A program made the translations under genes and the position numbers. Shown here piece by piece: positions 13,571-53,511 of a DNA stretch of 64,000 nt. Position 1 is the stretch's first letter. Every line of letters begins with the position of its first letter. This DNA comes from Acutalibacteraceae bacterium (GTDB lineage: Bacteria; Bacillota; Clostridia; Oscillospirales; Acutalibacteraceae), in the NCBI GenBank assembly GCA_045530855.1, contig JAZSCV010000005.1:3087-67086 (forward strand). Reading direction: 5' to 3'. The notes beneath the pieces are model-generated. The model was not told where the DNA came from. It searched no databases and worked only from the letters and a program-made list of their open reading frames with translations.

Positions 13571-13595
13571 AGTGCAGAGTGCAGAGTGCAAAGCA

Positions 13596-13631
13596 AAGGG
13601 AAGATTCCAAGTGAATCTTCCCTTCGTTTTT
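13596..13631 (+). terminator. Intrinsic terminator
   Basis: Stem aagggaagattc/gaatcttccctt, loop caagt, then cgttttt. Confidence 0.7.
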
Positions 13632-21559: not shown

Positions 21560-23068
21560 ATGGCTCATTATTGTAAAGAACCTTCAAGAACATTCAGCGA
21601 GTATTTGCTCATTCCGGGCTACACAGGTCCAGACTGCATTCCAAACAATGTAGACCTCAGCACACCTCTTTGCAAATACAGAAAAGGTGAAGAAGAAGCA
21701 CCAATCACACTTAACATTCCTATGGTTTCTGCAATTATGCAATCTGTTTCAAACGATACACTTGCTATTGCTTTGGCTAAGGAAGGTGGTATGTCTTTCA
21801 TTTACGGCTCACAGTCAATTGAAGACGAAGCGGCAATGGTCGCCAGAGTTAAGAATTACAAAGCAGGCTTTGTTGTTTCTGATTCTAACCTCTGCCCTGA
21901 CAGCACATTAGATGATGTTATTACTCTTTACGACAACCTTGGTCACTCCACAATGGCTGTTACAGCTGATGGTACAGCAACAGGCAAGCTTCTTGGTGTT
22001 GTTACATCAAGAGATTACAGAATCAGCCGTATGCCTTTAGATTTAAAGGTAACAGAATTTATGACGCCTCTTGAAAAGCTTGTTACTGCCCCTGCTTCTA
22101 CTTCCCTTAAAGAAGCATACGACATTATCTGGGAACACAAGCTCAACTCTCTCCCTATTATAGACGATAACGGAAAGCTCCTTTACTTCGTTTTCCGTAA
22201 GGACTATTCACAGCACAAGGAAAACCCACAGGAAATTCTTGACAGCCAGAAGCGTTATATGGTTGGTGCAGGTATCAACACCCGTGACTATCAAGAAGGA
22301 GTTCCTGCCCTTGTTGATGCAGGTGCAGATGTTCTTTGCATTGACTCTTCCGAGGGTTACACAGAGTGGCAGAAACGCACAATTGCATTCATCAGAGAAA
22401 AATACGGCGACACTGTTAAGGTTGGTGCAGGTAACGTTGTTGACAGAGACGGCTTCCGTTTCCTTGCAGACGCAGGCGCAGACTTTATTAAGGTTGGTAT
22501 CGGCGGCGGTTCAATCTGTATCACTCGTGAAACAAAGGGTATTGGCCGCGGACAGGCTACTGCACTTATTGAGGTTGCTGCTGCTCGTGACGAATATTAT
22601 AAAGAAACAGGCGTTTATGTGCCGATTTGTTCAGATGGTGGTATCGTTCATGACTACCATATGACACTTGCACTTGCAATGGGTGCAGACTTTATGATGC
22701 TCGGCAGATACTTTGCTCGTTTTGATGAAAGCCCAACACCAAAGCTCAACATTAACGGCACATACGTTAAAGAGTATTGGGGCGAAGGCTCAAACAGAGC
22801 ACGTAACTGGCAGAGATATGACCTTGGCGGTCAGTCAAAGCTTTCTTTTGAGGAAGGTGTTGACTCATACGTAACATATGCCGGCTCTCTCCACGACAAC
22901 GTTACAAAGAGTCTTTATAAGGTAAAATCCACAATGTGCAACTGTGGCGTTCTTACAATCCCTGACCTTCAGAGAGATGCAAAGCTCACACTTGTTAGTG
23001 CAACAAGTATTGTTGAAGGCGGCGCACACGACGTTACACTTAAAACAAACACAGGTAATATAAGATGA
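21560..23068 (+). CDS. guaB: IMP dehydrogenase family protein (with CBS pair)
   Basis: 502 aa. Catalytic loop [12 protein letters not shown], an inserted CBS region, and the N-terminus [11 protein letters not shown]. Confidence 0.8.
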
Positions 23069-23176
23069 TTAATTCGGAGTAGTTTTGGTTTTCAAAACTG
23101 CTCCGAAACTTAATTCCACCCGATAACAAGTGAACTTCATCGTTTTTATACATATAGCAAGAAAAGAGGTACAACC

Positions 23177-23860
23177 ATGGCAACTTTTGCAGAGAAAAAC
23201 TGGGGCGATTGTAGTAAAGCTATAGCATATGAATTCAACTTTGTGCAGATGTGCTATGGGTACGATTCTGATTGCTACGATGATTATTACAATTTATGTC
23301 CAAAATGTGGGTATGCCACAACGCAAGCCAGAGATTACGAATATCCAAAAAGCGGTTTTTCTAAAAAGGATTATTACCTTTTAGACACATATGATTTTGG
23401 TGTTTCACACAAGCTCAAAGAACAACTTATTTCCTTTGGAATATCCGAAGAAAATTTCAGACCGATATTCACAAGAAAACACGATATTATATTAGGTTTT
23501 CATCTGACACCTGTTCATACATTAGATTCTATTGAGAAAATAAATAACATTAAAAGCAAAATCCGTTGCAATTATTGTAATCGCATTGAATACGAATGGC
23601 CTGAAGAACATCTTGCTGTTTATGATCGCTTAGGTTATCCTCTATATGTTTCAGAAAATGAATTGACACAAATTAATACTCACCATATTGTAAAAACATT
23701 CGAACAGCATGATGTAATAATATCGTTAGAACTTTATAATCTTTTACTGAAAAACTATCCAAGAATAGAATGTCGACCTGTGTTTTTAGGCGATATAACA
23801 AATGACCCTGAATACATTAGATTACATAAGAACGAACTCAAAAAAAAAGCATTACGATAA
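23177..23860 (+). CDS. Hypothetical protein with CPKCG and CNYC motifs (possible double-CXXCG/Imm11-like immunity-type protein)
   Basis: 227 aa. RBS AAGAGG upstream. First gene of the AT-rich island. No catalytic motif recognised. Confidence 0.55.
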   Translation: MATFAEKNWGDCSKAIAYEFNFVQMCYGYDSDCYDDYYNLCPKCGYATTQARDYEYPKSGFSKKDYYLLDTYDFGVSHKLKEQLISFGISEENFRPIFTRKHDIILGFHLTPVHTLDSIEKINNIKSKIRCNYCNRIEYEWPEEHLAVYDRLGYPLYVSENELTQINTHHIVKTFEQHDVIISLELYNLLLKNYPRIECRPVFLGDITNDPEYIRLHKNELKKKALR

Positions 23861-23986
23861 TTTACGTAAAGAATTAGAATCAAAGCGTAGCGAATCGAAA
23901 CTTTAAAACAAGTGCAAAAAGCTAAGAGTAAAACTCATTTAAAACATATAATCTATGTTAATAAACTACAGATATTACAAAACAAA

Positions 23987-24024
23987 AACAGGAAGCGTTT
24001 GCTTCCTGTTTTGTTGCCTTTTTT
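23987..24024. terminator. Terminator at the convergence point of the island genes
   Basis: Stem aacaggaagc/gcttcctgtt, loop gttt, then a T-rich tail. An A-run lies on the other side. Confidence 0.7.
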
Positions 24025-24039
24025 AGTCCTTTTCGATTA

Positions 24040-24058
24040 GGTTTTCACGCTAACCGTC
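24040..24058. repeat. Left copy of a perfect 19-bp inverted repeat bracketing the cassette array (mini-version of the island repeat)
   Basis: ggttttcacgctaaccgtc is the exact reverse complement of 26817-26835. It continues ccct, sharing the aaccgtcccct core with the 121-bp repeats. Confidence 0.85.
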
Positions 24059-24133
24059 CCCTCGTGTTATGTCTCGTCTTGATAAACCGCCTTAACGATT
24101 GAGTATAAAGGAGGACTGTTATATAACAAGTAT

Positions 24134-24661
24134 TTAAAAAGGAAAAGAAGTATGATACTTAATAACATTCCTACTATAGATTCGTAATAAAAACCTTTCA
24201 ATAATAACGCCACAGAAAAAAAACAAAAGCGGTAATACAAGTAATCCAAAAATTATTAGTAATGGAGTCAAAAATTTAATGGCTAATTTTTTTACATAAA
24301 CTTGAGAACATACGATGCTACTATTTTTTGAAACGATTGTACTATTACCCCTCAAGATATGATCAAAACTTTCAAAATTCACATCAATAGTCGATATATT
24401 AATGTTTAAATGCTCGTTGCTTATAAAGATTACATCATATTTTTTTGAAAAATATTTATTTAATATATCATTAAATAAAGGAGCCTTTGAACTGTCAATT
24501 AAATTAAAGTAAAAACGTAAAATTAATGACAAATCTTGTTTTAAACTATATTGTTTTATTTTGATTACAGAAAATTTATGTGTACCAGGAGGAATTGATA
24601 TTATATTCGAACATATTTTCTCATCGTTTAAATAAAAATCATATAATGAATGTTTTTCCAT
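24134..24661 (-). CDS. Hypothetical protein with C-terminal TM segment (cassette 4)
   Basis: 175 aa, no recognisable domain, AT-rich. A T8 run near the 3' end leaves a second frame (24067..24249) open. Confidence 0.5.
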   Translation of the reverse strand: MEKHSLYDFYLNDEKICSNIISIPPGTHKFSVIKIKQYSLKQDLSLILRFYFNLIDSSKAPLFNDILNKYFSKKYDVIFISNEHLNINISTIDVNFESFDHILRGNSTIVSKNSSIVCSQVYVKKLAIKFLTPLLIIFGLLVLPLLFFFCGVIIERFLLRIYSRNVIKYHTSFPF

Positions 24662-24696
24662 CTACACACTCCTTCAAGAAAATTTGGGATGTAGGA

Positions 24697-24817
24697 CAGG
24701 GGACGGTTCTGTGATTGGGTGATTTCCCAACGAAAACCGACCCCTGATTTTAAGTTTTAAATAGCTAAAAAACCTTGATTTTCAAGGGATTACGGTTCAA
24801 TCATAGAACCATCCCCC
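24697..24817. repeat. Island repeat copy R1 (121 bp)
   Basis: caggggacggttctgtgattgggtgatttcccaacgaaaaccgacccctg...ggttcaatcatagaaccatccccc. About 8 mismatches relative to R2. Confidence 0.9.
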
Positions 24818-24870
24818 GATTGGTTCCCCCCGATTGGTTCTGATTGGTTTATTGTGTTCCCTGATTGGTT
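24818..24870. repeat. Cluster of four GATTGGTT octamers
   Basis: GATTGGTT at 24818, 24832, 24842 and 24863, directly abutting R1. Single copies abut R2 (25832). AATTGGTT and ATTTGGTT variants lie at 26269-26276 and 26854-26861. Confidence 0.8.
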
Positions 24871-24880
24871 CCAGTGCTAA

Positions 24881-25645
24881 TTATTGCAGGTTTGATATTA
24901 TATCCGCAAAATCAATTTCAGGAGAATAGAAGAAATAGGGGCTATTTAGAAATTGCAAAAAGAAACATGGATTAAAACCGGAATAGTTAACATTGACTGC
25001 AACACATTCATTATTTGAAATCAAATAAACCGTTGTTGAAACGCCATAATCAACATCGTCCGGAACGCCCAGCAAATCCACAGGAAAATGACCAAGTGTT
25101 GCCCACCTTCTACACTTAGCTTCTTCATAATAAACCTCAATGCCATCCATTTCGCCATAAAAGACGTATGTTGGATACACGTTCATTGATGCTGCTTTTT
25201 CTTCTTCAGTCATTCGTAGACCTTCAAGTAGTCTTTCGCTTGTCTCAGCATCCCAATAAGATATCCATCCGAACATATCGCTTGTGCTAAAATTCTTATC
25301 TTTACTATAAATATCTTTGTTTTGTTTAACATAATTAAATGTATCGGACACAGTATCCATTTTAACCCTTATTTTCGCAGGTGGTTCTGTGTAACCTAAA
25401 AGAATACATACACACAAGACAACAGATAAAACGCCCAACTTAATTTTAAGTTTTTTGGACCTATTAGTTTTTAAAAATCTTAAAGACCATACTATTGAGT
25501 AAATTAAATACCCTGTAAAAGCTACAAAACCTATACGAAGAAAAATTGAAATCCAACCGAAAAACACATGTAAAGCATCCGCACTACTTAGACCGTTTTG
25601 CATATTCAAGAATACAGACAAGAATGGGAAATTATATAACATCAT
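24881..25645 (-). CDS. Hypothetical membrane protein (cassette 3)
   Basis: 254 aa. Two to three N-terminal TM helices followed by a soluble domain. No motif recognised. Confidence 0.55.
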   Translation of the reverse strand: MMLYNFPFLSVFLNMQNGLSSADALHVFFGWISIFLRIGFVAFTGYLIYSIVWSLRFLKTNRSKKLKIKLGVLSVVLCVCILLGYTEPPAKIRVKMDTVSDTFNYVKQNKDIYSKDKNFSTSDMFGWISYWDAETSERLLEGLRMTEEEKAASMNVYPTYVFYGEMDGIEVYYEEAKCRRWATLGHFPVDLLGVPDDVDYGVSTTVYLISNNECVAVNVNYSGFNPCFFLQFLNSPYFFYSPEIDFADIISNLQ

Positions 25646-25710
25646 ATTATCACCTTAAATCATACGACGCAAAAAACTATATTTTTTTGCAAATTCAGTT
25701 AATAAAAAAC

Positions 25711-25831
25711 CAGGGGACGGTTCTGTGATTGGGTGATTTCCCAACGAAAACCGACCCCTGATTTTAGATTTTAAAACGGCTAAAAACCTTGATTTTAAAG
25801 GGATTACGGTTCAATCATAGAACCGTCCCCC
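25711..25831. repeat. Island repeat copy R2 (121 bp)
   Basis: Same unit as R1. Arms caggggacggtt (25711-25722) and aaccgacccctg (25749-25760) form a hairpin. The 3' end ggttcaatcatagaaccgtccccc is inverted relative to the 5' end. Confidence 0.9.
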
Positions 25832-26052
25832 GATTGGTTTTTCGAATCATTTCCTTTTTCTCCGTTTGCCCATAAGCCCTCTTTGATATTCCCATCAAGA
25901 AATTGCTTAATTTGGTAAATCAATTCATCAATTAAAGAATCCGAAACATATATTTGTGATATAATAGTTGCCACTAAAGAGGAACACACAACTTTTAATT
26001 CTATTATATCATCATCTTCCCATATTTTTCTAAATATAATAGTATCTTTCAT
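25804..26052 (-). CDS. Small hypothetical protein (cassette 2)
   Basis: 82 aa. The last ~10 codons are encoded by repeat R2, so the true C-terminus is uncertain. Confidence 0.4.
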   Translation of the reverse strand: MKDTIIFRKIWEDDDIIELKVVCSSLVATIISQIYVSDSLIDELIYQIKQFLDGNIKEGLWANGEKGNDSKNQSGDGSMIEP

Positions 26053-26135
26053 TATATTGCACCTTCTTTAAACTATTTCGTAAACTTGAAATCATCAAAT
26101 GTTTCTAAGATTTGATTATAAACATAATAAAAAAT

Positions 26136-26257
26136 CAGGAGGCGATTCTGTGATTAGACGATTTTCCACCAAAAATCGCCCCTGATTTTAAACTTTGAAA
26201 CAGCTAAAAAACCTTGATTTTAAAGGGATTACGGTTCAATCATAGAACCGTCCCCTG
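26136..26257. repeat. Island repeat copy R3 (122 bp, diverged hairpin arms)
   Basis: caggaggcgatt...aatcgcccctg replaces caggggacggtt...aaccgacccctg. The 3' part gggattacggttcaatcatagaaccgtcccctg is conserved. Confidence 0.9.
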
Positions 26258-26275
26258 TCCTGTCTGAAAATTGGT

Positions 26276-26779
26276 TTATAGAGTTTGATGTATGCAAAAA
26301 TATCTGTTGTATTCTATGTCATATAAAAAAATGAGCCATTTACTTGTATCTTCATATACCATATTTTTACTATTGGTTATAATCTCATTATTTTTACAGT
26401 CATATATACATATATAGCAATTACGATTTTTATATTTGTTACCTAAAATTTTTCTATACTGATTAAAAGAATCAAGCTTTTCAATATGATTAGGCCTCAA
26501 TTTATCCCAATTGCCATTTTCAATATCCTTTAAAACAAGTTTTTCCTCTAAGTCATTCAATTCAAAAATCCAATATTCGAAAACATCGCCCGAAAATACA
26601 CTGTAACGGAATCTTTCTGCTGCAGAAGTTGGAACAAAAACAATATCAAGTTCGTATATATACTCGGTAATTGTTCCAAATCTCATACTGAACAACTGGA
26701 ATAAAACAAAAACCAAAACCACAATTAAAGCTACCTTAAATTTGATTTTTGAGATTTTTTTAATATTTATTTTCGCCAT
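26276..26779 (-). CDS. Hypothetical membrane-anchored protein (cassette 1)
   Basis: 167 aa. Basic N-terminus plus one TM helix (VALIVVLVFVLFQLF). No motif recognised. Confidence 0.5.
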   Translation of the reverse strand: MAKINIKKISKIKFKVALIVVLVFVLFQLFSMRFGTITEYIYELDIVFVPTSAAERFRYSVFSGDVFEYWIFELNDLEEKLVLKDIENGNWDKLRPNHIEKLDSFNQYRKILGNKYKNRNCYICIYDCKNNEIITNSKNMVYEDTSKWLIFLYDIEYNRYFCIHQTL

Positions 26780-26816
26780 GTTTTTGTACCTCCCATTAAC
26801 CCAATAGAGAAAATCA

Positions 26817-26835
26817 GACGGTTAGCGTGAAAACC
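26817..26835. repeat. Right copy of the 19-bp inverted repeat bracketing the cassette array
   Basis: gacggttagcgtgaaaacc is the exact reverse complement of 24040-24058. Confidence 0.85.
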
Positions 26836-26940
26836 GATTAAAACCCTCCTAAATTTGGTTCCACTTATATATGTCAAAAATTTGAAAATACTACATAATT
26901 TTTTTAAAAAACTTTTCTGATTTTTTCGATTTGTATGAAT

Positions 26941-26980
26941 ACACAAAAATCACCTCATTGTTTTGTGCAACAATGAGGTG
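26941..26980 (-). terminator. Intrinsic terminator of the esterase gene
   Basis: Stem cacctcattgtt/aacaatgaggtg followed by a T-run on the minus strand. Confidence 0.65.
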
Positions 26981-48262: not shown

Positions 48263-49288
48263 TCAGTTAGATTTAGCTGTGGAGCTGAAAGCTGAGCCTG
48301 ACTCAATTCTAATCATATATTCTTCAACGAGTCTTTTCGCAGTTTTAAGTCCCTTCCAACCAACAGATGAACGCTGATTAAGCGGGTCGTTGCCGTAGCC
48401 CTTCTGCTTTACAATGTGCTCAATACCGCCGCCGTTTACACTTGTAACACCATAGGCATCGGCACCAATAACAAGGGTTGCAAATACAGCACAATTGTCT
48501 GCACCTGCATTCCAAATTTTTGCTTCCGTGCTTTCAACAAAGCGAACACCGCCAAGGCAACCGATTTCACCTGTAAGCATATTTTCAGGAGTTGCGTACT
48601 TCTGGACCTCCATCCACTGATTACCTGCCTCCTGCATAAGGTCGTAGGCAACATACGGATGAATAATACCCACATAGTAGCCATCGATTTTAGGGGCATT
48701 CATAGCCTTAAGCTCTGCGGCAGCCTTGAAAACATCCTTAACACGGAGAAGTGATGTTTTATCAATAGCACTTCTTGAGGTAACCTCTGTTTCTGTGCCA
48801 TCTGCTGCTACCTTAGGGCAGTAAAGAACATTAGTACCACCAACAATTTCATTTCTTACAATTGTATCCATTGTAAGACCTGCCTGTGCAGAAAGCTGCT
48901 TTGTAGCTTCAACAATTGTGTTATCAACTGCAGTAAGCTCAAGAAGGTCTGTCTGTTCAATGTAATCACCATACTGTTCAACAGATGCGGTAATTGCTGT
49001 TACATTAAGCTTATTTCCTGATGGTGTTACACCTTCTGTAAGTGGTGTAAGCGCCTTAGGAAGTGATGAAAACTTTCTGAATTCGATAATCTTACCACCA
49101 TTTTTAGGAATATCGCGCTTCTGACCAAACTGATCGTGCACAAGATATGGTGATGCAAGAGTAATAAGTGTTTTATCATAAAAGGTTTTCATTTCTGCAC
49201 TAAGATTATTACCTGATGCGTTTGATGTTGTTGCGTTTACTGTGTCACCTGCTGCAAAAAGCTGAAGATTTAAAATATAATCTGTCAT
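48263..49288 (-). CDS. Major capsid protein (HK97-fold, N4-gp56-like family) with Prp-type N-terminal propeptide
   Basis: 341 aa. N-terminus MTDYILNLQLF|AAGD. Follows the scaffold gene. Confidence 0.75.
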   Translation of the reverse strand: MTDYILNLQLFAAGDTVNATTSNASGNNLSAEMKTFYDKTLITLASPYLVHDQFGQKRDIPKNGGKIIEFRKFSSLPKALTPLTEGVTPSGNKLNVTAITASVEQYGDYIEQTDLLELTAVDNTIVEATKQLSAQAGLTMDTIVRNEIVGGTNVLYCPKVAADGTETEVTSRSAIDKTSLLRVKDVFKAAAELKAMNAPKIDGYYVGIIHPYVAYDLMQEAGNQWMEVQKYATPENMLTGEIGCLGGVRFVESTEAKIWNAGADNCAVFATLVIGADAYGVTSVNGGGIEHIVKQKGYGNDPLNQRSSVGWKGLKTAKRLVEEYMIRIESGSAFSSTAKSN

Positions 49289-49309
49289 ATTTTCTCCTTT
49301 CAGATGGTG

Positions 49310-50065
49310 TCAGAATTTTATGCTGGCACCATTTTCGACCTGTTTAAGTATTTTTAAAATATCCTGTGAGGTCAGGGAATTGACATCGACTGAAGTAACA
49401 ATTGCACTTTCGGAAGAAATACCATTTTCCATAGGACGCATACCTTTAGCTTCAATATTCTGTACCATTTGCTGACGCACCGCATCTGCAGTAAAGTGCA
49501 TAGCATCAGAAATAATTTCATCTTTATGCACCATATCGTACGCAGTTTTCACCGGTACACCGCTTAAAAGAAGTCGAGAAAACAGCTTGTTGCCTCTGAT
49601 TTCATTTCGTAAGTTAAAATCAGGAATTATAGCTTTAAGTTCTTCACTTTCTTTAAGCCATGACCCGATTTTATTTCTTAATGCTTCTGAGTTTAAAATG
49701 CTATTTCTTTTGTCTGCCTCATATTTTTGCTGTCTTTCAGTTTCCATAACATCAACAAGCTTTTCTTCCTCGCCCATATCAAGCCCGTATTTACCCATAA
49801 GCCTTTCAACAATCGGGGAAACCTTGCTTTTATAGGCTTCAAGCTCCTTTGTCTCTTTAAATCGTTTATCAATAATTGCCTGTGTTTTCCTGGTAAAATC
49901 CTCTTTAAACCTACCATTTATTAGGTCATCAAATTCATTATCACCATTATAGGTATTGTTTTGCCCGGCGGCGGCAATCTCGACGCCCGTTTCTCCACCT
50001 GCAGACTCTGCTCCCTCACCTGAGAAAAGCTGTAGGTTAAGAGCATACCAAAATAATCTTTTCAT
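49310..50065 (-). CDS. Scaffolding protein with Prp-type N-terminal propeptide
   Basis: I prefer the ATG at 50065 (MKRLFWYALNLQLF|SGEG, RBS GAAAGGA). Helical and charge-rich. Positioned between Prp and capsid. Confidence 0.65.
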   Translation of the reverse strand: MKRLFWYALNLQLFSGEGAESAGGETGVEIAAAGQNNTYNGDNEFDDLINGRFKEDFTRKTQAIIDKRFKETKELEAYKSKVSPIVERLMGKYGLDMGEEEKLVDVMETERQQKYEADKRNSILNSEALRNKIGSWLKESEELKAIIPDFNLRNEIRGNKLFSRLLLSGVPVKTAYDMVHKDEIISDAMHFTADAVRQQMVQNIEAKGMRPMENGISSESAIVTSVDVNSLTSQDILKILKQVENGASIKF

Positions 50066-50161
50066 AAAAAATCCTTTCTTTGTTGCAACATTCATCGTCT
50101 TTCCGAAGTGTCATGATATATATTAAAAACCGTTTGGCCATAACGGTTTTTCACACAAGAA

Positions 50162-50482
50162 TCAGTTAAATCTCACATACTTAGGGTAACTATCCTCAAG
50201 CATCAATAAACCCTTGATGCAGGTATCAAAAATACCCTGCACCCGATTTTTTGAAAAATCGAAATATTCTATTTCGAGATGCATATAACCATCTCTTACG
50301 ATGTTTCTGATAAGCTTCACATTACCCGAAGCCTCCTCATCCAGCATACAATTCAACAAAGTGTATGCCAGGGTGGATATGCCTGCACAAACAATATCAG
50401 AACCGCTTTGTGCATATGTGCTATGTCCTTCTATAGTGACAAAAAGCTTATCATAATATTCTCTGTAATAAACAGTTGTCAC
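50162..50482 (-). CDS. prp: Prp-like (DUF464) cysteine protease
   Basis: 106 aa. IEGHSTYAQSGSDIVCAGISTLAY carries the conserved His...Cys dyad context (GH...DIVCA.(V/I)S). Confidence 0.75.
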   Translation of the reverse strand: MTTVYYREYYDKLFVTIEGHSTYAQSGSDIVCAGISTLAYTLLNCMLDEEASGNVKLIRNIVRDGYMHLEIEYFDFSKNRVQGIFDTCIKGLLMLEDSYPKYVRFN

Positions 50483-52134
50483 TGCAGGCTCACCTCTGCG
50501 CTTAGCTTTGAGGATAAAATACTTTTACCCTCAAAATCCATCATACTGATTGCAAGCAATGCCTGTGTTCTGTTTTCCGGGTTAAACATACCCGCACCAT
50601 ACAACTGTAAAGCCAGCTCATTCTGACTAATTTTTGAAAATGGACTTGCTTTTTCGGCAGAAACCTTTACATCGAATATAGGCTTTCGCAAACTGATTTC
50701 TGCACCGAAATCACCACTGTATTTTTTTATCAGCAAGCCTGTATTGTCATATGTAACAAACTGTTGTTCTCCGTTATCACCAATAATTCTGAAAAATCTT
50801 GGTTCATCGTAAAACTGTCGTATTAACTCAATAGCAAGACTATTAAGCTCTGCAAAGGCTCTGTACCCACCTTTTACCATATCGCGGGTAAGCTTTGAGC
50901 CTGCTTCCTGCAAAGCGGCAATTGCACTTGCCGCTGTAACTCCGCTTGAAACACCACCCTGAGAAAAATCCCTGTTGCCGCTCGTTTCCTTAAGCTCGTC
51001 AATTTTGTTGTTCAAAACCCCAAGGTACGTACCCGGAACATTAGAAAACTTAATTTCTCTTATGCTGTCCTCACCAAGATTACTGCCTGAAACATGCACA
51101 AAATTATTGGACCAATCTGCAAACTCTTCCTCATTTACAGCACCGGAAGAGTTAATAAAATATCGTGGTGTTGCTGCCATTGTTGCATTTTTTACCAATG
51201 AATTGGAAAGAATATCAATCTGCTTCTGAGTATTCTTCATAATATCTATGTACCCGAAGCCACACGGCGTACCTTCTTCAACAAAAAGTGTATCGAAAAC
51301 AAATGGATACTTACCGTGGTCGTAAAAGCCTCTTGAAATATATGCAGAATCATTTTCAGAAGCGTACAAAAGCTCACCATTACAGATTTTGCAGTAATGC
51401 ACCTGCTCAACACCATTTTTGATTACTTTATAATAATGATCTATTACGGCACTTTTTTCTGTTGTATCAACATTATCATCATAAACATACTTTGCAATTT
51501 CAACATCTGATGAACCTAATTTGCCTGAAAGCTGTGGATACAGAGAAACAAGTGTATCATTATCCATAAGCTCAACATGGAACAGATTTTTACTTTTCTG
51601 AATATTCTTAATACCCGGCTCCCAGAAAAGGTTAAGCACATCAATCTGTTTGATTTCAATATCACCCAAGCCATTATTTTTTATAGGGTTCCAGAATATT
51701 CCGTAAACTGCAGTACCGGCTTTAAGCTTGTACCACCAAGCATCATTATAGATCTTGTCAAAGCCGTTTCTTTCAAATACAACAGGCAAGATCTGAGAAA
51801 GTACCTCTGCGGTTTTCTTATCACTTTCTTCACGAGGCAAGCATGCAACCGTAGGATAATTATCCATTGCATCCGCATGCTTGTTTGCAATAGAGTTAAA
51901 AAGCCATGCCGATGCATTCTGATTTTTGCTTTCAGGACTTAATTGCTCCCAATGGCGCATTTTGAACCACTGCTCATTATCAACAATTCTGTTTTCAAGA
52001 TTTGTTTTTGCTGATTTGTATTTTTTTAAAGTTCTGAGGCTCTTTTCTACCTCATCTTTTCCTATCACACCAAAGGTTCCTATTAGTGTGGCAGGTTTTA
52101 TTTTTTCATAGTTATTTAGATTTTCTTTTTCCAT
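50479..52134 (-). CDS. Phage portal protein
   Basis: 551 aa. Immediately downstream of TerL, with size and position typical of a portal. Confidence 0.7.
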   Translation of the reverse strand: MEKENLNNYEKIKPATLIGTFGVIGKDEVEKSLRTLKKYKSAKTNLENRIVDNEQWFKMRHWEQLSPESKNQNASAWLFNSIANKHADAMDNYPTVACLPREESDKKTAEVLSQILPVVFERNGFDKIYNDAWWYKLKAGTAVYGIFWNPIKNNGLGDIEIKQIDVLNLFWEPGIKNIQKSKNLFHVELMDNDTLVSLYPQLSGKLGSSDVEIAKYVYDDNVDTTEKSAVIDHYYKVIKNGVEQVHYCKICNGELLYASENDSAYISRGFYDHGKYPFVFDTLFVEEGTPCGFGYIDIMKNTQKQIDILSNSLVKNATMAATPRYFINSSGAVNEEEFADWSNNFVHVSGSNLGEDSIREIKFSNVPGTYLGVLNNKIDELKETSGNRDFSQGGVSSGVTAASAIAALQEAGSKLTRDMVKGGYRAFAELNSLAIELIRQFYDEPRFFRIIGDNGEQQFVTYDNTGLLIKKYSGDFGAEISLRKPIFDVKVSAEKASPFSKISQNELALQLYGAGMFNPENRTQALLAISMMDFEGKSILSSKLSAEVSLQ

Positions 52135-52149
52135 TTTCTCTTTCCTTTA

Positions 52150-53511
52150 CTAAATTCTTTTTATTAAATCCAACGGATCATCATATATTTTTTCTTCTCT
52201 TTTTTTGTATGTAGGTGATATTGGTCTTGCCATACACATATACCTCATTTCGTCAGCGATATGATCCTCTCCCGTTGTATCTAAATCCTCAGGATTGGTT
52301 GAACTGAATTTCAATTCCGGTACTGTCCTTATAAAGCCTCTGCAGTTATTAAACACATACATCATAGGAATCCCCTGCTCGTCAAAGGCAAGTCTGTAGT
52401 GCACCTGCATCCACCCGGGAATACGCTTATTATCACCTTTTGTGAAAAATATTCCGTTTCTGTCTGCTGATTCAATGATTGCCTCACCTCTTGATGCATC
52501 CCATATAGATGGGTCAGCCACACCTAAAATCCTTTTATTTTTTAACCACCTGTGTTGTTTTTCTATGTTTGCTATTTCAGAAAATATTTTTTCAGGAGGC
52601 CATTTGACACCTTCGTTTGCTGTTTTAGTACAACCGTACAACTCTAAAATTCTGTACAGCCTGCCATCGTAATCCACAGCCCACCAGGCGCAGGAAAACG
52701 GCTTTGCATAACCAAAGTCAAAGGACCTGTAAATTACCCAATCATTCGGAATTTCAAAAGGCTCAATAACATGTGTGTTTATACCATCCCTGTAGTGCTC
52801 CGGATTATCTCTGAACTCTTCAAAAAATTGTCCGTCAAAAATATCCCAGTTACCAAAGCGGTGAGCCTGCCTTAATTTTTCGGGAAGTGCATCAAGCACC
52901 TTCACATATTCGGGATTAGTACTCAGAAGTACAGTATTATCATCTATTGTTGCAGGAATAAATATGTAGTCATTGGGATCCTCACCCGTTTCATAGCGAC
53001 CTTTAACAAACAGCCTTTTAAACCAGTTATGCCCCACTCCGCCTGGATTCCCCGTAAAATACATACGAGGTTTAAAATCACTTCTTGTTGTTCTGTTACA
53101 GGTCATCAAAAACTGAATCTGGGAAAAGGTAAAATGCGTACATTCTTCAACACCAATAACATCATATTCCTGACCCTGATACTGATAAATATCGTTTTCG
53201 GTATCACAATAACCAAGCCTGATTCTTGATCCGTTTGGGAATATAAATGCCCTTTCATCTCTTTTATAGCGGGCAATTCCGTTTAACTGAGCAAGCATAG
53301 GCAAAAGATGGTTTTCTCTTAGTTCAGGAAGAGTTTTTCGTAAAAGCAATAATTTAAGGTTATTGTACTTAAGAGCAAGCAGAATAAATTTTGTTCTTAA
53401 TGCCCAGGATTTCCCGCCACCTCTTGCACCGCCATAGCCGATAAATCGTTGATTACACTTAAAAAACTGTTCTTGCTTTGCGTTCGGTTGAGAAATGAGA
53501 AGTTCCTTCAT
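52150..53511 (-). CDS. terL: Terminase large subunit
   Basis: 453 aa. Walker A GYGGARGGGKSW, Walker B-like YDVIGVEE, C-terminal nuclease-like region. Confidence 0.85.
   Translation of the reverse strand: MKELLISQPNAKQEQFFKCNQRFIGYGGARGGGKSWALRTKFILLALKYNNLKLLLLRKTLPELRENHLLPMLAQLNGIARYKRDERAFIFPNGSRIRLGYCDTENDIYQYQGQEYDVIGVEECTHFTFSQIQFLMTCNRTTRSDFKPRMYFTGNPGGVGHNWFKRLFVKGRYETGEDPNDYIFIPATIDDNTVLLSTNPEYVKVLDALPEKLRQAHRFGNWDIFDGQFFEEFRDNPEHYRDGINTHVIEPFEIPNDWVIYRSFDFGYAKPFSCAWWAVDYDGRLYRILELYGCTKTANEGVKWPPEKIFSEIANIEKQHRWLKNKRILGVADPSIWDASRGEAIIESADRNGIFFTKGDNKRIPGWMQVHYRLAFDEQGIPMMYVFNNCRGFIRTVPELKFSSTNPEDLDTTGEDHIADEMRYMCMARPISPTYKKREEKIYDDPLDLIKRI

Follow-up and report, generated by a model that had tools for sequence, protein, structure and literature searches.

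The block at positions 24040-26835 of the window (the whole 64-kb stretch of DNA analyzed) probably derives from an RHS polymorphic-toxin locus of an Acutalibacteraceae-type Clostridium and holds immunity genes only, with no toxin gene; its foldbacks on a short core would be elements mobilized in trans. The identity of the locus is clear, its content varies between strains, the site is empty in a relative, the core is confined to arrays of this kind, and breakpoints map to core edges. The palindromic repeat that separates the cassettes is seemingly undescribed.

Layout of the array

The block is carried on the minus strand and comprises four ORFs, three repeats of about 125 nt and a perfect 19-bp inverted repeat. 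Its features, and those adjoining it, are as follows.

26836-26968, minus strand: array leader, conserved and non-coding, from the esterase terminator to the first cassette
26817-26835, minus strand: leader mini-foldback, the right arm of the 19-bp inverted repeat, complementary to 24040-24058
26276-26779, minus strand: cassette 1, ORF167, membrane-anchored alpha/beta protein, putative orphan immunity
26136-26264, minus strand: repeat R3, composite palindromic unit, left site with a hybrid outer arm
25804-26052, minus strand: cassette 2, ORF82, small acidic protein, putative immunity
25711-25839, minus strand: repeat R2, with left site, central hairpin, hairpin 2 and right site
24881-25645, minus strand: cassette 3, ORF254, polytopic membrane protein, apparent orphan RHS immunity
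24826-24875, minus strand: tandem partial units 5' of R1, outer arm and core start
24697-24825, minus strand: repeat R1, right site with a hybrid outer arm
24067-24661, minus strand (ORF175 as read, 24134-24661): cassette 4, ORF175, frameshifted, apparent orphan RHS immunity
24040-24062, minus strand: trailer mini-foldback, the left arm of the 19-bp inverted repeat, complementary to 26817-26835
23985-24012, no strand assigned: bidirectional intrinsic terminator at the end of both the array and the convergent plus-strand genes, kept in the related strain L008
23177-23860, plus strand: variable neighbor, a 227-aa Cys-rich ORF between the guaB stop and the terminator

A repeat search of the window found R1, R2 and R3 as a single direct-repeat family, R2 being 93% and R3 79% identical to R1 without gaps. 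When the 121-nt units are aligned with gaps, R1 and R2 differ at 9 positions, R1 and R3 at 21, and R2 and R3 at 20. The arms of the inverted repeat (24040-24058 and 26817-26835) are 100% complementary over 19 bp, and no second such pair occurs in the window even with three mismatches allowed (0.01 expected by chance). All four minus-strand ORFs (175, 254, 82 and 167 aa) are present, and searches of Pfam and NCBIfam gave no match for any of them at the curated cut-off. The layout thus agrees with what a sequence-only reading of this DNA had described: three copies of one element of about 121 bp, a perfect 19-bp inverted repeat bracketing the array, and four minus-strand ORFs without recognizable domains. 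Its estimate of about eight differences between R1 and R2 was one short of the gapped count. It had also called the block clearly more AT-rich than its flanks. With 31.5% G+C in the block, against 37.5% in the window, 44.1% in guaB, 36.2% in the esterase and 34.2% in sigE-spoIIGA, this is true of the guaB side, but the difference from the right flank is only slight. The 227-aa Cys-rich ORF, which lies outside the repeat array and is missing from L008, has no Pfam, NCBIfam or PDB match.

Anatomy of the repeat

Each repeat is a composite of foldbacks on the 12-nt core GGGGACGGTTCT, which, with at most one mismatch, occurs five times in the 64 kb, always within R1-R3 (0.01 expected). Short self-complementary arms, variable among copies, lie on either side of the core. 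Two core foldbacks and a small hairpin with a T run make up the 121-nt repeat; the 19-bp ends are single mini-foldbacks, and the earlier view of them as shortened versions of the repeat element is supported. On the ORF strand of R2, the left site CAATCG GGGGACGGTTCTA TGATTG closes hairpin 1, the middle is a CCTTT-loop-CAAGG hairpin followed by a T run, and the end is a long hairpin 2 that finishes in the right site CAATCA CAGAACCGTCCCC TGGTTTTTT. Hybrid outer arms are seen in the left site of R3 (GGACA-core-TGATTG) and in the right site of R1 (CAATCA-core-TGTCCT), the latter repeat having no U tract. The partial units at 24826-24875 read AACCAATC(A/G)GGGG, an outer arm plus the beginning of the core, and in every array such footprints precede most of the left sites. 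The repeat unit has terminal inverted repeats of 21-25 nt and invariant blocks of 22-28 nt, with a genome-specific interior.

The bounding mini-foldbacks are inverted in the window and direct repeats in L001. On the ORF strand, that of the leader is GGTTTTCACGCTAACCGTC, in which a short loop separates a degenerate left core from a right-type core (AACCGTC), and that of the trailer is GGGGACGGTTAGCGTGAAAACC. The core half of the trailer travels with cassette 4 and the remainder is locus-specific.

Cassette genes and RHS toxins

ORF254 has only 13 homologues among 5.8 billion proteins. In L032, the gene for one of these (P0002, 83% identity) comes immediately after that of a 2169-aa RHS/TEN_YD-shell protein, and another (P0012) follows a 428-aa orphan RHS C-terminus in L035, where an Rhs_assc_core domain is found. 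The C-terminal domain of the RHS toxin paired with an ORF254 homologue matches DUF6765 (32.9 bits) and, weakly, Zn_dep_PLPC (Zn-dependent phospholipase C). The ORF175 region is 98.6% identical in nucleotides to positions 759-1391 of L042, which hold an intact 197-aa homologue immediately next to an RHS C-terminus (TIGR03696 Rhs_assc_core, 63 bits). Relative to L042, the window has one extra base in a T-rich run at about 24222-24230, and the intact 197-aa frame would reach about 24067.

Homologues of ORF254 and ORF175 are thus found immediately downstream of toxin C-terminal domains, in the position of cognate immunity genes, which supports the earlier proposal of a cassette-like array of orphan immunity genes. 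At least these two cassettes appear to be orphan copies of RHS-toxin immunity genes of related bacteria; support from toxin context covers two of the four ORFs. None of the four matches a known immunity family or fold. ORF167 is a putative orphan immunity protein, with a confidently predicted structure (AlphaFold2 pLDDT 93.9) in which residues 6-34 form a helix and an alpha/beta domain comes after it; a PDB fold search with this model gave no match at E<=0.001, and the family is small (49 representative clusters). ORF82, the last approximately 12 codons of which lie within R2 (3' end), has no family and no PDB sequence match, and its putative immunity role has the weakest evidence among the four cassettes. 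Orphan RHS C-termini are also present in the related arrays of L003 (RHS_repeat, 24.5 bits; Rhs_assc_core, 82 bits), L013 (RHS plus Amidase_6) and L031 (1676-aa RHS). The four cassettes, small genes for proteins of membrane or secreted type, likely protect against the toxins of neighbors without a toxin being produced.

The leader and the origin of the locus

A leader of approximately 130 nt was matched by an nhmmer profile in the window (26968-26800), L008, L036, L007 and L032 (3304-3451), the L007 match being at a different locus. In L032, the leader lies directly upstream of the 2169-aa RHS gene. In the sister genome L036, at the same esterase locus as in the window, the leader precedes an ORF with an N-terminal match to the L032 RHS protein. 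The leader shared with L032 and L036 ties the array to a toxin locus, and no toxin gene is found within the 64-kb window. The sequence-only reading had likened the block to orphan-immunity arrays, but had missed the link to RHS toxins, including this common leader.

Variation between strains

In L008, other cassettes lie between the same guaB and esterase flanks, and in the related species L037 the site is empty; content therefore varies while the flanks stay fixed, the pattern that the sequence-only reading had proposed to test for. L008 has ORF254 at 99.6% identity, kept together with R2 (97.6% in nucleotides), is without ORF82, R1 and ORF175, and holds a different cassette at the position of ORF167. 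Among the comparison loci, most of which are 8-kb MAG pieces recovered via the repeat itself (an ascertainment bias), L002 differs from L005 at the trpS locus, and the PGM locus is occupied in L001 and empty in the window.

The sequence and most of its relatives are metagenome assemblies, ORF175 is frameshifted, and ORF82 is short and overlaps a repeat, all of which could be read as chance, or as a mis-assembled MAG region or non-coding ORFs. This is highly improbable, however, given that the same architecture is seen in independent ENA, NCBI and JGI assemblies, that ORF254 is almost unchanged in L008, that the predicted fold of ORF167 reaches a pLDDT of 94, and that the flanks are collinear with those of relatives.

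Distribution of the core and junctions between arrays

In this clade, 86 cores were counted in 47.7 kb of array DNA and none in 202 kb of flanks, nor does any occur in the other 61 kb of the window. All genome hits of the repeat (7/7) are arrays, and the repeats are co-oriented with the neighboring cassette ORFs throughout nine mapped arrays. With no core in the flanks, the repeat is not scattered at random over the intergenic sites of the loci covered, and its restriction to small-ORF arrays, envisaged earlier, holds for this clade. Metagenome contigs of 29-61% G+C carry the identical core with variable arms and interiors, often in single copy, and high-G+C relatives do occur as single copies after ordinary genes. 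The sequence-only reading had described the 121-bp unit, but not the conserved 12-nt core with variable arms that is widespread in metagenomes. Nested tandem core units are found in L010 and L012. REPs can be targets of IS110-family elements, and in L015 an IS110-family element is apparently inserted at an arm/core junction.

Breakpoints between arrays map to core edges, and several are one-ended. Homology with L008 stops right after the AACCG of the leader mini-foldback. At the trailer, homology with L042 stops right after GGGGACGGTT, and homology with L008 spans the whole trailer, which in that strain is joined to a stretch matching the 3' end of ORF175. The fusion point of R1 lies 26 nt ahead of the ORF175 start, and the equivalent point in L042 falls inside the toxin gene, making this junction one-ended; the same pattern is seen between L001 and L005. 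A cassette common to L001 and L005 has moved without its repeat, the adjacent repeat being of the resident genome's type: the shared ORF is about 95% identical versus about 80% for the adjacent repeat (by eye), with 85.7% over the full aligned stretch including gaps. Breakpoints at repeat edges are partly to be expected under any model that places different cassettes between common repeats.

A possible role of the repeats as RNA

The repeats probably act on mRNA as inter-cistronic hairpins or partial terminators. Hairpin 2 with a U tract is present in R2 and R3, with folding z-scores of -4 to -6, and in most family members, and absent in R1 and the GGACA-arm subfamily. On the ORF strand G-U pairs outnumber A-C pairs in hairpin 1 (12 versus 2) and hairpin 2 (20 versus 6). 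Covariation within the repeat family is not significant (129/500 shuffles reach the observed score), so that the RNA role is a proposal. The left core begins approximately -35 to +70 nt from the stop codons of repeat-abutting cassettes, and 23-110 nt separate the end of the right core from most starts. No relevant Rfam match was found in the window (E<=1) or in five related loci (E<=0.1).

The strong hairpin and U tract after the upstream ORF in R2 and R3, the bias of G-U pairs to the ORF strand and the placing of the cores relative to stops and starts are what would be seen if the repeats were inter-cistronic terminators or mRNA-stabilizing hairpins inherited with RHS loci, immobile in themselves and subject to RecA-dependent recombination or slippage. 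The invariant blocks are long enough for homologous exchange, and the genome-specific interior is as from concerted evolution. However, a terminator needs no identical 12-nt sequence with variable stems across genomes of 29-61% G+C, nested tandem units and one-ended junctions point to active ends, R1 is without a U tract, and covariation is not significant, making immobile repeats a rather unlikely explanation.

Comparison with known systems

The array resembles integrons, CALINs and Vibrio VCR-type attC arrays in its ORF-repeat-ORF-repeat order of co-oriented, mostly promoterless small ORFs. VCR-type attC sites and the array repeat are both imperfect palindromes of approximately 120 nt, near-identical within a genome, and integrons likewise have a leader with a probable common promoter before the array. 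The attC sites end in 5'-RYYYAAC ... GTTRRRY-3', and their bottom strand, when folded, has extrahelical bases. The units studied here begin ..GGGGACGGTTC and end GAACCGTCCCC.. on either strand, that is, GTT...AAC as read from the alignments, and hairpin 2 has a bulged or mismatched T. A recombinase domain was found neither in window ORFs of at least 140 aa, consistent with the earlier statement that the window has no recombinase, nor in the Pfam-annotated flanks of L008 and L032-L041, and no transposase or recombinase recognizing the core was found, none lying adjacent at any examined locus. With no adjacent recombinase and ends that do not fit the R''/R' consensus, the integron-type logic proposed in the sequence-only reading is thus unsupported. 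An integron or CALIN was rejected on the same grounds: no IntI was found, the attC end consensus does not fit, and in L001 and L005 the ORF moved while the repeat stayed, with junctions that are often one-ended.

A wider form of this idea is integron- or rAID-like capture, in which the core palindromes are sites of a dedicated recombinase encoded elsewhere, cassettes are exchanged reciprocally, and single foldbacks between convergent genes are landing pads. A core that stays constant over contigs of 29-61% G+C amid variable surroundings implies a sequence-specific factor, hairpin 1 is laid out as a recombinase core site (two inverted elements of approximately 11 bp with a 7-bp spacer), and the hybrid arms fit a crossover in or beside the core. 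Arrays occupy several chromosomal sites where relatives have none, the repeats are always co-oriented with the ORFs, and the L001 array lies between direct copies of one 57-nt mini-foldback, as expected from integration of a circle. However, no recombinase is found within 10-20 kb of any array or in the 64-kb window, the attC ends do not match, and the repeat is left behind when a cassette travels. The one-ended junctions, with the other end at an arbitrary point inside toxin genes or ORFs, are not a reciprocal site-specific product, and a conserved centre with variable arms is the opposite of the pattern in lox, FRT, dif and att core sites. Capture of this kind is therefore unlikely.

Arrays of the rAID-1 type in Bacteroidales have a conserved adjacent XerD-family recombinase and protect against T6SS effectors (bioRxiv 10.1101/471110). 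Like rAID-1, the window array has homologues of orphan immunity genes, repeats between its genes and a skewed G+C, but it differs in having no adjacent recombinase, in its association with RHS toxins, in phylum and in an unrelated repeat. As no XerD-family recombinase was found at the array head, assignment to rAID-1 was rejected.

Rhs orphan toxin-immunity modules and polyimmunity loci are also among the closest known systems (PMC3482391, PMC3967940). Like the array, they are rows of immunity genes downstream of rhs, with or without orphan toxin C-termini, and both are strain-variable and AT-skewed, with immunity homologues beside full toxins (PMC3482391, PMC3967940). Unlike in those loci, the window array has no toxin gene, the leader alone being left, its modules are parted by a dedicated non-coding palindrome and not only by reused rhs-core coding homology, and its host is a Gram-positive gut or rumen-type Clostridium.

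Among palindromic elements, REP, BIME and REPIN sequences and the mosaic dRS3 elements of Neisseria also have inverted palindromes that pair into foldbacks of approximately 100 nt and can cluster, and REP-type elements likewise follow gene 3' ends as possible terminators or mRNA stabilizers (PMC3116915, PMC3733652). The core does not have the GTAG/CGTC layout, or the 8-9 bp stem and 4-5 nt loop, of REPs (PMC3733652). It is instead conserved at a 13-nt centre with variable stems, with its copies in this clade confined to toxin-immunity arrays. A REP or REPIN was rejected, as the tag layout is absent and the 61 kb of non-array window and 202 kb of flanks hold no core; no Y1 transposase (RAYT) is present in any locus annotation. 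MITEs are similar to the repeat in size (approximately 110-140 nt), terminal inverted repeats, non-coding nature, variable interiors and nested copies. In contrast to MITEs, the repeat has strict gene orientation and occurs in one kind of locus, no target-site duplication is visible (the core flanks are inverted, not direct), and a search of phages, plasmids and viral contigs gave no parent element. Of two possibilities raised in the sequence-only reading, a MITE-colonized island is nearer the junction evidence than a new cassette-capture site.

Proposed mechanism

In the preferred reading, that of a toxin-less RHS derivative, modules would turn over at the core foldback elements. These may be miniature mobile DNA of a MITE- or REPIN-like kind, mobilized in trans and confined to toxin-immunity loci. 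One-ended deletions starting at foldback ends may strip toxin genes and cassettes, and the invariant 22-28-nt blocks could provide homology for module swaps between arrays and genomes. The enzyme acting on the core would be encoded away from the arrays.

A further, more speculative possibility, to be held tentatively, is that Oscillospirales Clostridia possess an undescribed trans-acting recombination or transposition system that recognizes the core GGGGACGGTTCT(R), 12-13 nt long, when it is displayed by a hairpin or cruciform, with the foldbacks as landing pads and module boundaries at which toxin/immunity cassettes are assembled, pruned and exchanged. If true, the core system would functionally amount to an integron that has no integrase beside it and is devoted to the genes of interbacterial conflict.

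Organization of the array

The comparisons below identify the block at 24040-26835 as an array of orphan RHS-immunity genes in a variable hotspot, delimited by foldbacks that carry a conserved core. The repeats, inverted repeat and ORFs were all confirmed where the sequence-only reading had placed them:

24040-24058 and 26817-26835: perfect 19-bp inverted repeat
24697-24825: repeat R1, first of three copies of a direct-repeat family
25711-25839: repeat R2
26136-26264: repeat R3
24826-24875: tandem arm-plus-GGGG partial units
minus strand, interspersed with the repeats: four ORFs of 167, 82, 254 and 175 aa (ORF167, ORF82, ORF254 and ORF175)

Of 121 positions in gapped alignments, 9 differ between R1 and R2 and about 20 between R3 and either of them. 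No further copy of the 19-mer or of the core, GGGGACGGTTCT, was found in the 64 kb, where 0.01 chance matches are expected. The block had been described as more AT-rich than its flanks; with 31.5% G+C this stands against the window (37.5%) and guaB (44%), but the difference from the right flank (34-36%) is only slight. The four ORFs and a 227-aa neighbour match no Pfam or NCBIfam family, PDB searches by sequence and by fold gave no significant match, and exact-sequence look-up of ORF254, ORF167, guaB and the protein P0134 returned no record.

Cassette genes and RHS toxins

ORF254 has only 13 homologues among 5.8 billion proteins. One of these (P0002, 83% identity) is encoded directly 3' of a 2169-aa RHS/TEN_YD-shell protein in the related locus L032, and another (P0012) 3' of an orphan RHS C-terminus of 428 aa in L035. 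The C-termini of both toxins match DUF6765 (~33 bits, above cut-off) and, weakly, Zn-dependent phospholipase C. The predicted model of ORF254 has helices at residues 7-85, and the toxin matches would suit a polytopic membrane immunity protein.

For ORF175 only two homologous clusters were found. Its homologue in L042 is 98.6% identical and intact at 197 aa, and abuts an ORF in which an RHS-associated core domain (TIGR03696, 63 bits) precedes a hydrophobic C-terminal domain. Compared with this intact gene, the window copy is frameshifted by one extra base in a T-rich run (24222-24230), splitting it into the 175-aa ORF and a 60-aa ORF at 24067-24249; the extra base could be an assembly error or mark a phase-variable tract, or the gene could be a pseudogene. 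ORF167 is modelled with confidence as a membrane-anchored alpha/beta domain (pLDDT 94) with no fold match in the PDB; its family is small, with 49 representative clusters. No relatives of ORF82 were found. Orphan RHS C-termini with small ORFs downstream also occur in related arrays. From gene position we infer a putative immunity function for ORF254 and ORF175, and not for ORF167 or ORF82.

The leader is a remnant of an RHS locus

Between the esterase terminator and the first cassette lies a leader of ~130 nt (26836-26968), also present in the related strain L008. The same leader heads the array of L007 at a different chromosomal site, and is found directly upstream of the RHS gene in L032. 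In the sister genome L036 it lies downstream of the orthologous esterase, followed by an ORF starting MKKSRKILAV, with homology to the N-terminal end of the RHS toxin of L032. Thus, in the sister genome the same site begins with a full RHS gene, and the window keeps only the leader and the immunity genes, the toxin being gone.

An ECF-type sigma factor gene with an adjoining gene for a 268-270-aa membrane protein (L032 2575-3132, L038 8930-9499) is transcribed divergently from the leader that precedes the RHS or large surface-protein operon in these two loci, and AT-rich parts of the leader are repeated in inverted orientation on the sigma side. This sigma factor may be a dedicated regulator of such toxin loci. 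In the window the leader is present, with no ECF-type sigma gene nearby.

Variability between genomes

Cassette content varies between strains while the flanks stay fixed, as expected from the proposal of a cassette array. In L008, whose flanks are ~94% identical, the order is leader, 119-aa ORF, degenerate repeat, unrelated 175-aa ORF, repeat, ORF254 (99.6% aa identity to the window copy) and trailer; R1, ORF175 and the 227-aa plus-strand gene are missing. L037 represents the empty site, with the esterase (82% identical) and guaB convergent, 71 nt apart and sharing a single terminator, and L038 has other genes at the array position. Arrays also differ between L002 and L005 at the trpS locus. 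At the phosphoglucomutase (PGM) locus of L001 (MAG JAZNTA), an array of three cassettes lies after the PGM orthologue (73% nt identity), whereas the corresponding spacer in the window (13571-13629) has a plain terminator only. The window therefore holds the empty version of a second array site.

The 227-aa ORF (23177-23860, plus strand) is Cys-rich with two CxxC pairs, lies between the guaB stop and the shared terminator, and has no Pfam, NCBIfam or PDB match; the whole segment containing it, 23067-23972, is missing from L008. Encoded outside the repeat array and on the other strand, this ORF may be another conflict-related gene of the hotspot. Elsewhere, the minus strand carries a cluster of phage-like structural genes (48263-53511: capsid, P22-type portal, large terminase), which could be what is left of a prophage or could resemble a gene-transfer agent. 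A search of window ORFs of at least 140 aa gave no integrase.

Anatomy of the repeat

The repeat was resolved by aligning 21-27 full-length copies, taken from the window and from related loci, and has three parts, read on the ORF strand:

Part 1: left site CAATCA-GGGGACGGTTCTA-TGATTG, pairing with a degenerate inverted core, GAACCGTaaTCCC, as hairpin 1
Part 2: small CCTTG-loop-CAAGG hairpin, then a T run
Part 3: long hairpin 2, in which a degenerate left core (AATCAGGGG-CGGTTTT) pairs with the right site CAATCA-CAGAACCGTCCCC-TGATTTTTT
Leader mini-foldback: CGGTTTTC-ACGCT-AACCGTC
Trailer mini-foldback: GGGGACGGTT-AGCGTGA-AAACC

A site is therefore a conserved, asymmetric centre of 12-13 nt between short self-complementary arms. 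The arms fall into two subfamilies, AATCA/TGATT and A/GGACA/TGTCT/C, and hybrids are seen in the window (R3 left site, GGACA-core-TGATTG; R1 right site, CAATCA-core-TGTCCT) as well as in L005 and L003 (AAGACA-(core-G)-TGATTG). Most left sites are preceded by 1-3 tandem partial units of arm plus GGGG(A). Each 19-bp end of the array is a single mini-foldback, the leader and trailer versions being exact inverted copies; in L001, direct copies of a 57-nt mini-foldback flank the array instead.

Repeat units fold much better than shuffled sequence (z-scores -4 to -6), and G-U pairs exceed A-C pairs on the ORF strand (12 versus 2 in hairpin 1, 20 versus 6 in hairpin 2). Covariation for the two-hairpin structure is non-significant among these closely related copies, the observed score being matched by 129 of 500 shuffles. 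Rfam at permissive thresholds returned nothing relevant for the window and five related loci.

Several known elements were considered and rejected. The central hairpin (CTTGAAAATCAAGGTTTTT) recalls Hin/Gin hix sites, but other copies read CTTGTATATCAAGG and hix-like symmetry is not conserved. GGTTCTGTG resembles GGTTCTGTTGCAAAG, the terminal repeat of the IS6 family, but only at one locus (L016). REP families tagged by GTAG/CGTC do not match the layout; CRISPR, dif/Xer sites and LexA boxes were ruled out on inspection of sequence and spacing, and searches including inspection gave no convincing sigma-70 promoter within the repeats.

In another array with an ORF254 homologue (L033 8590-10000, and L034), an inter-cassette element of ~280-330 nt has the same left and right sites around an extra G+C-rich, strongly structured insert (GGTGGTGGGTAGTTCTC...GGGTCAGGCAAGCCTGACCC), which has no match in Rfam.

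Distribution of the core

Among species-representative genomes, an exact 21-mer of hairpin 1 finds seven loci, all in Acutalibacteraceae MAGs and all arrays in which 2-7 repeat copies alternate with small ORFs. Every repeat in nine mapped arrays has the orientation of the neighbouring cassette ORFs. In the window and related loci, a sample partly found via the repeat (the window's other 61 kb and L036-L041 were not so chosen) and consisting mostly of 8-kb MAG pieces rather than whole genomes, the 86 cores counted all fall within array DNA (47.7 kb), and the flanking or orthologous housekeeping DNA (202 kb) has none. Thus, for this clade, the element does not behave as an ordinary dispersed MITE or REP.

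A gapped core pattern found 22 further loci in metagenomes, on contigs of 29-61% G+C, with an identical core and different arms and interior. Many are single foldbacks past 3' ends or between convergent genes (L016, L018, L027), and some are nested stacks of 22-25-nt units (L010, L012); those of low G+C lie again within RHS or small-ORF arrays (L013, L021, L028, L031). The repeat unit has no blastn match in plasmid and phage collections, the gapped pattern has none in viral contigs, and a search of the literature for the core gave unrelated primers only, the core sequence itself being in no paper.

Several of these loci have further features. In high-G+C contigs (L010 1730-1900, L012 1120-1290) there are perfect long palindromes with 3-4 tandem arm-plus-core units per side of a short loop, which look as if the element had inserted repeatedly into itself. 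In L015 (1440-3310, 47% G+C), the gene of an IS110-family transposase (DEDD_Tnp_IS110 + Transposase_20) appears to interrupt a foldback site, with the outer arm (GTAAGACAG) on one side and the core on the other. Such insertion is known for those IS110 elements that target REP sequences, and the arrangement suggests that an IS110/bridge-type recombinase naturally targets the core. A foldback-flanked 'cassette' in the RHS array of L031 (5450-6370, 39% G+C contig) encodes an AraC/GyrI-like regulator with a 96-bit match to Pfam Cass2 ('integron-associated effector binding protein'), a family originally noticed in the cassettes of integrons.

Junctions and proposed mechanism

Between the window and L008, homology stops just past AACCG of the leader, and restarts at two places, the outer arm of the left site of R2 and the trailer. 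In L008 the trailer follows ..CAGACGAG, a match to the last codons of ORF175, which suggests a putative deletion with one end at an arm-core junction and the other within ORF175. The segment shared with L042 starts 10 nt past the R1 right site and stops exactly where GGGGACGGTT of the trailer ends. In L042 the 5' end of this segment lies within the 3' coding end of the toxin; therefore R1 was joined at an arbitrary point, just 5' of the ribosome-binding site of the immunity gene, and the toxin removed. Between L001 and L005, a shared ORF is ~95% identical and the adjacent repeat ~80% (by eye; 85.7% over the whole stretch with gaps), and each repeat is of its own genome's type; the 5' junction lies after the right site in one genome and inside a 73-aa ORF in the other. 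Core edges are therefore recurrent breakpoints, and several events are one-ended.

The foldbacks would be miniature mobile DNA moved in trans, now or recently, because a conserved core is combined with variable arms, nested copies and one-ended junctions. Foldback ends would prune toxin genes and cassettes, invariant blocks of 22-28 nt would provide homology for module exchange among arrays and genomes, and on the mRNA the foldbacks would probably be partial terminators or hairpins between cistrons. Neither the window's ORFs of at least 140 aa nor any fetched flank gave a recombinase (as first noted for the window) or a transposase, which excludes an integron or a rAID-1 type of system whose integrase is adjacent. 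A site-specific recombinase acting in trans is considered rather unlikely. Mobile foldbacks moved in trans are the reading preferred here.

Comparison with known systems

The block works like the Rhs orphan/polyimmunity loci (PMC3482391). It also works like rAID-1 of Bacteroidales, but is without an XerD-type recombinase and differs in phylum and toxin class. Of the integron or rAID-type logic first proposed, the orphan immunity array has held up and the integron has not: there is no IntI and no attC end consensus, and a cassette travels without its site. REP elements also do not fit, with no dispersal in the clade, no GTAG/CGTC layout and no RAYT seen.

Orphan immunity arrays shape strain competition in gut Bacteroidales. 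The same strategy is now seen in Gram-positive Acutalibacteraceae, aimed at RHS toxins, with the locus caught after loss of the toxin and retaining the leader and a changing set of immunity genes. The core, not found in Rfam, in phage, plasmid and viral collections or in the searchable literature, marks the boundaries of modules and the points of rearrangement. A dedicated enzyme acting on it would mean a new system of cassette shuffling and a possible tool for genome engineering; without one, the element would still be a practical marker for toxin-immunity islands in Clostridia MAGs, useful where the proteins of these islands themselves match no known family.
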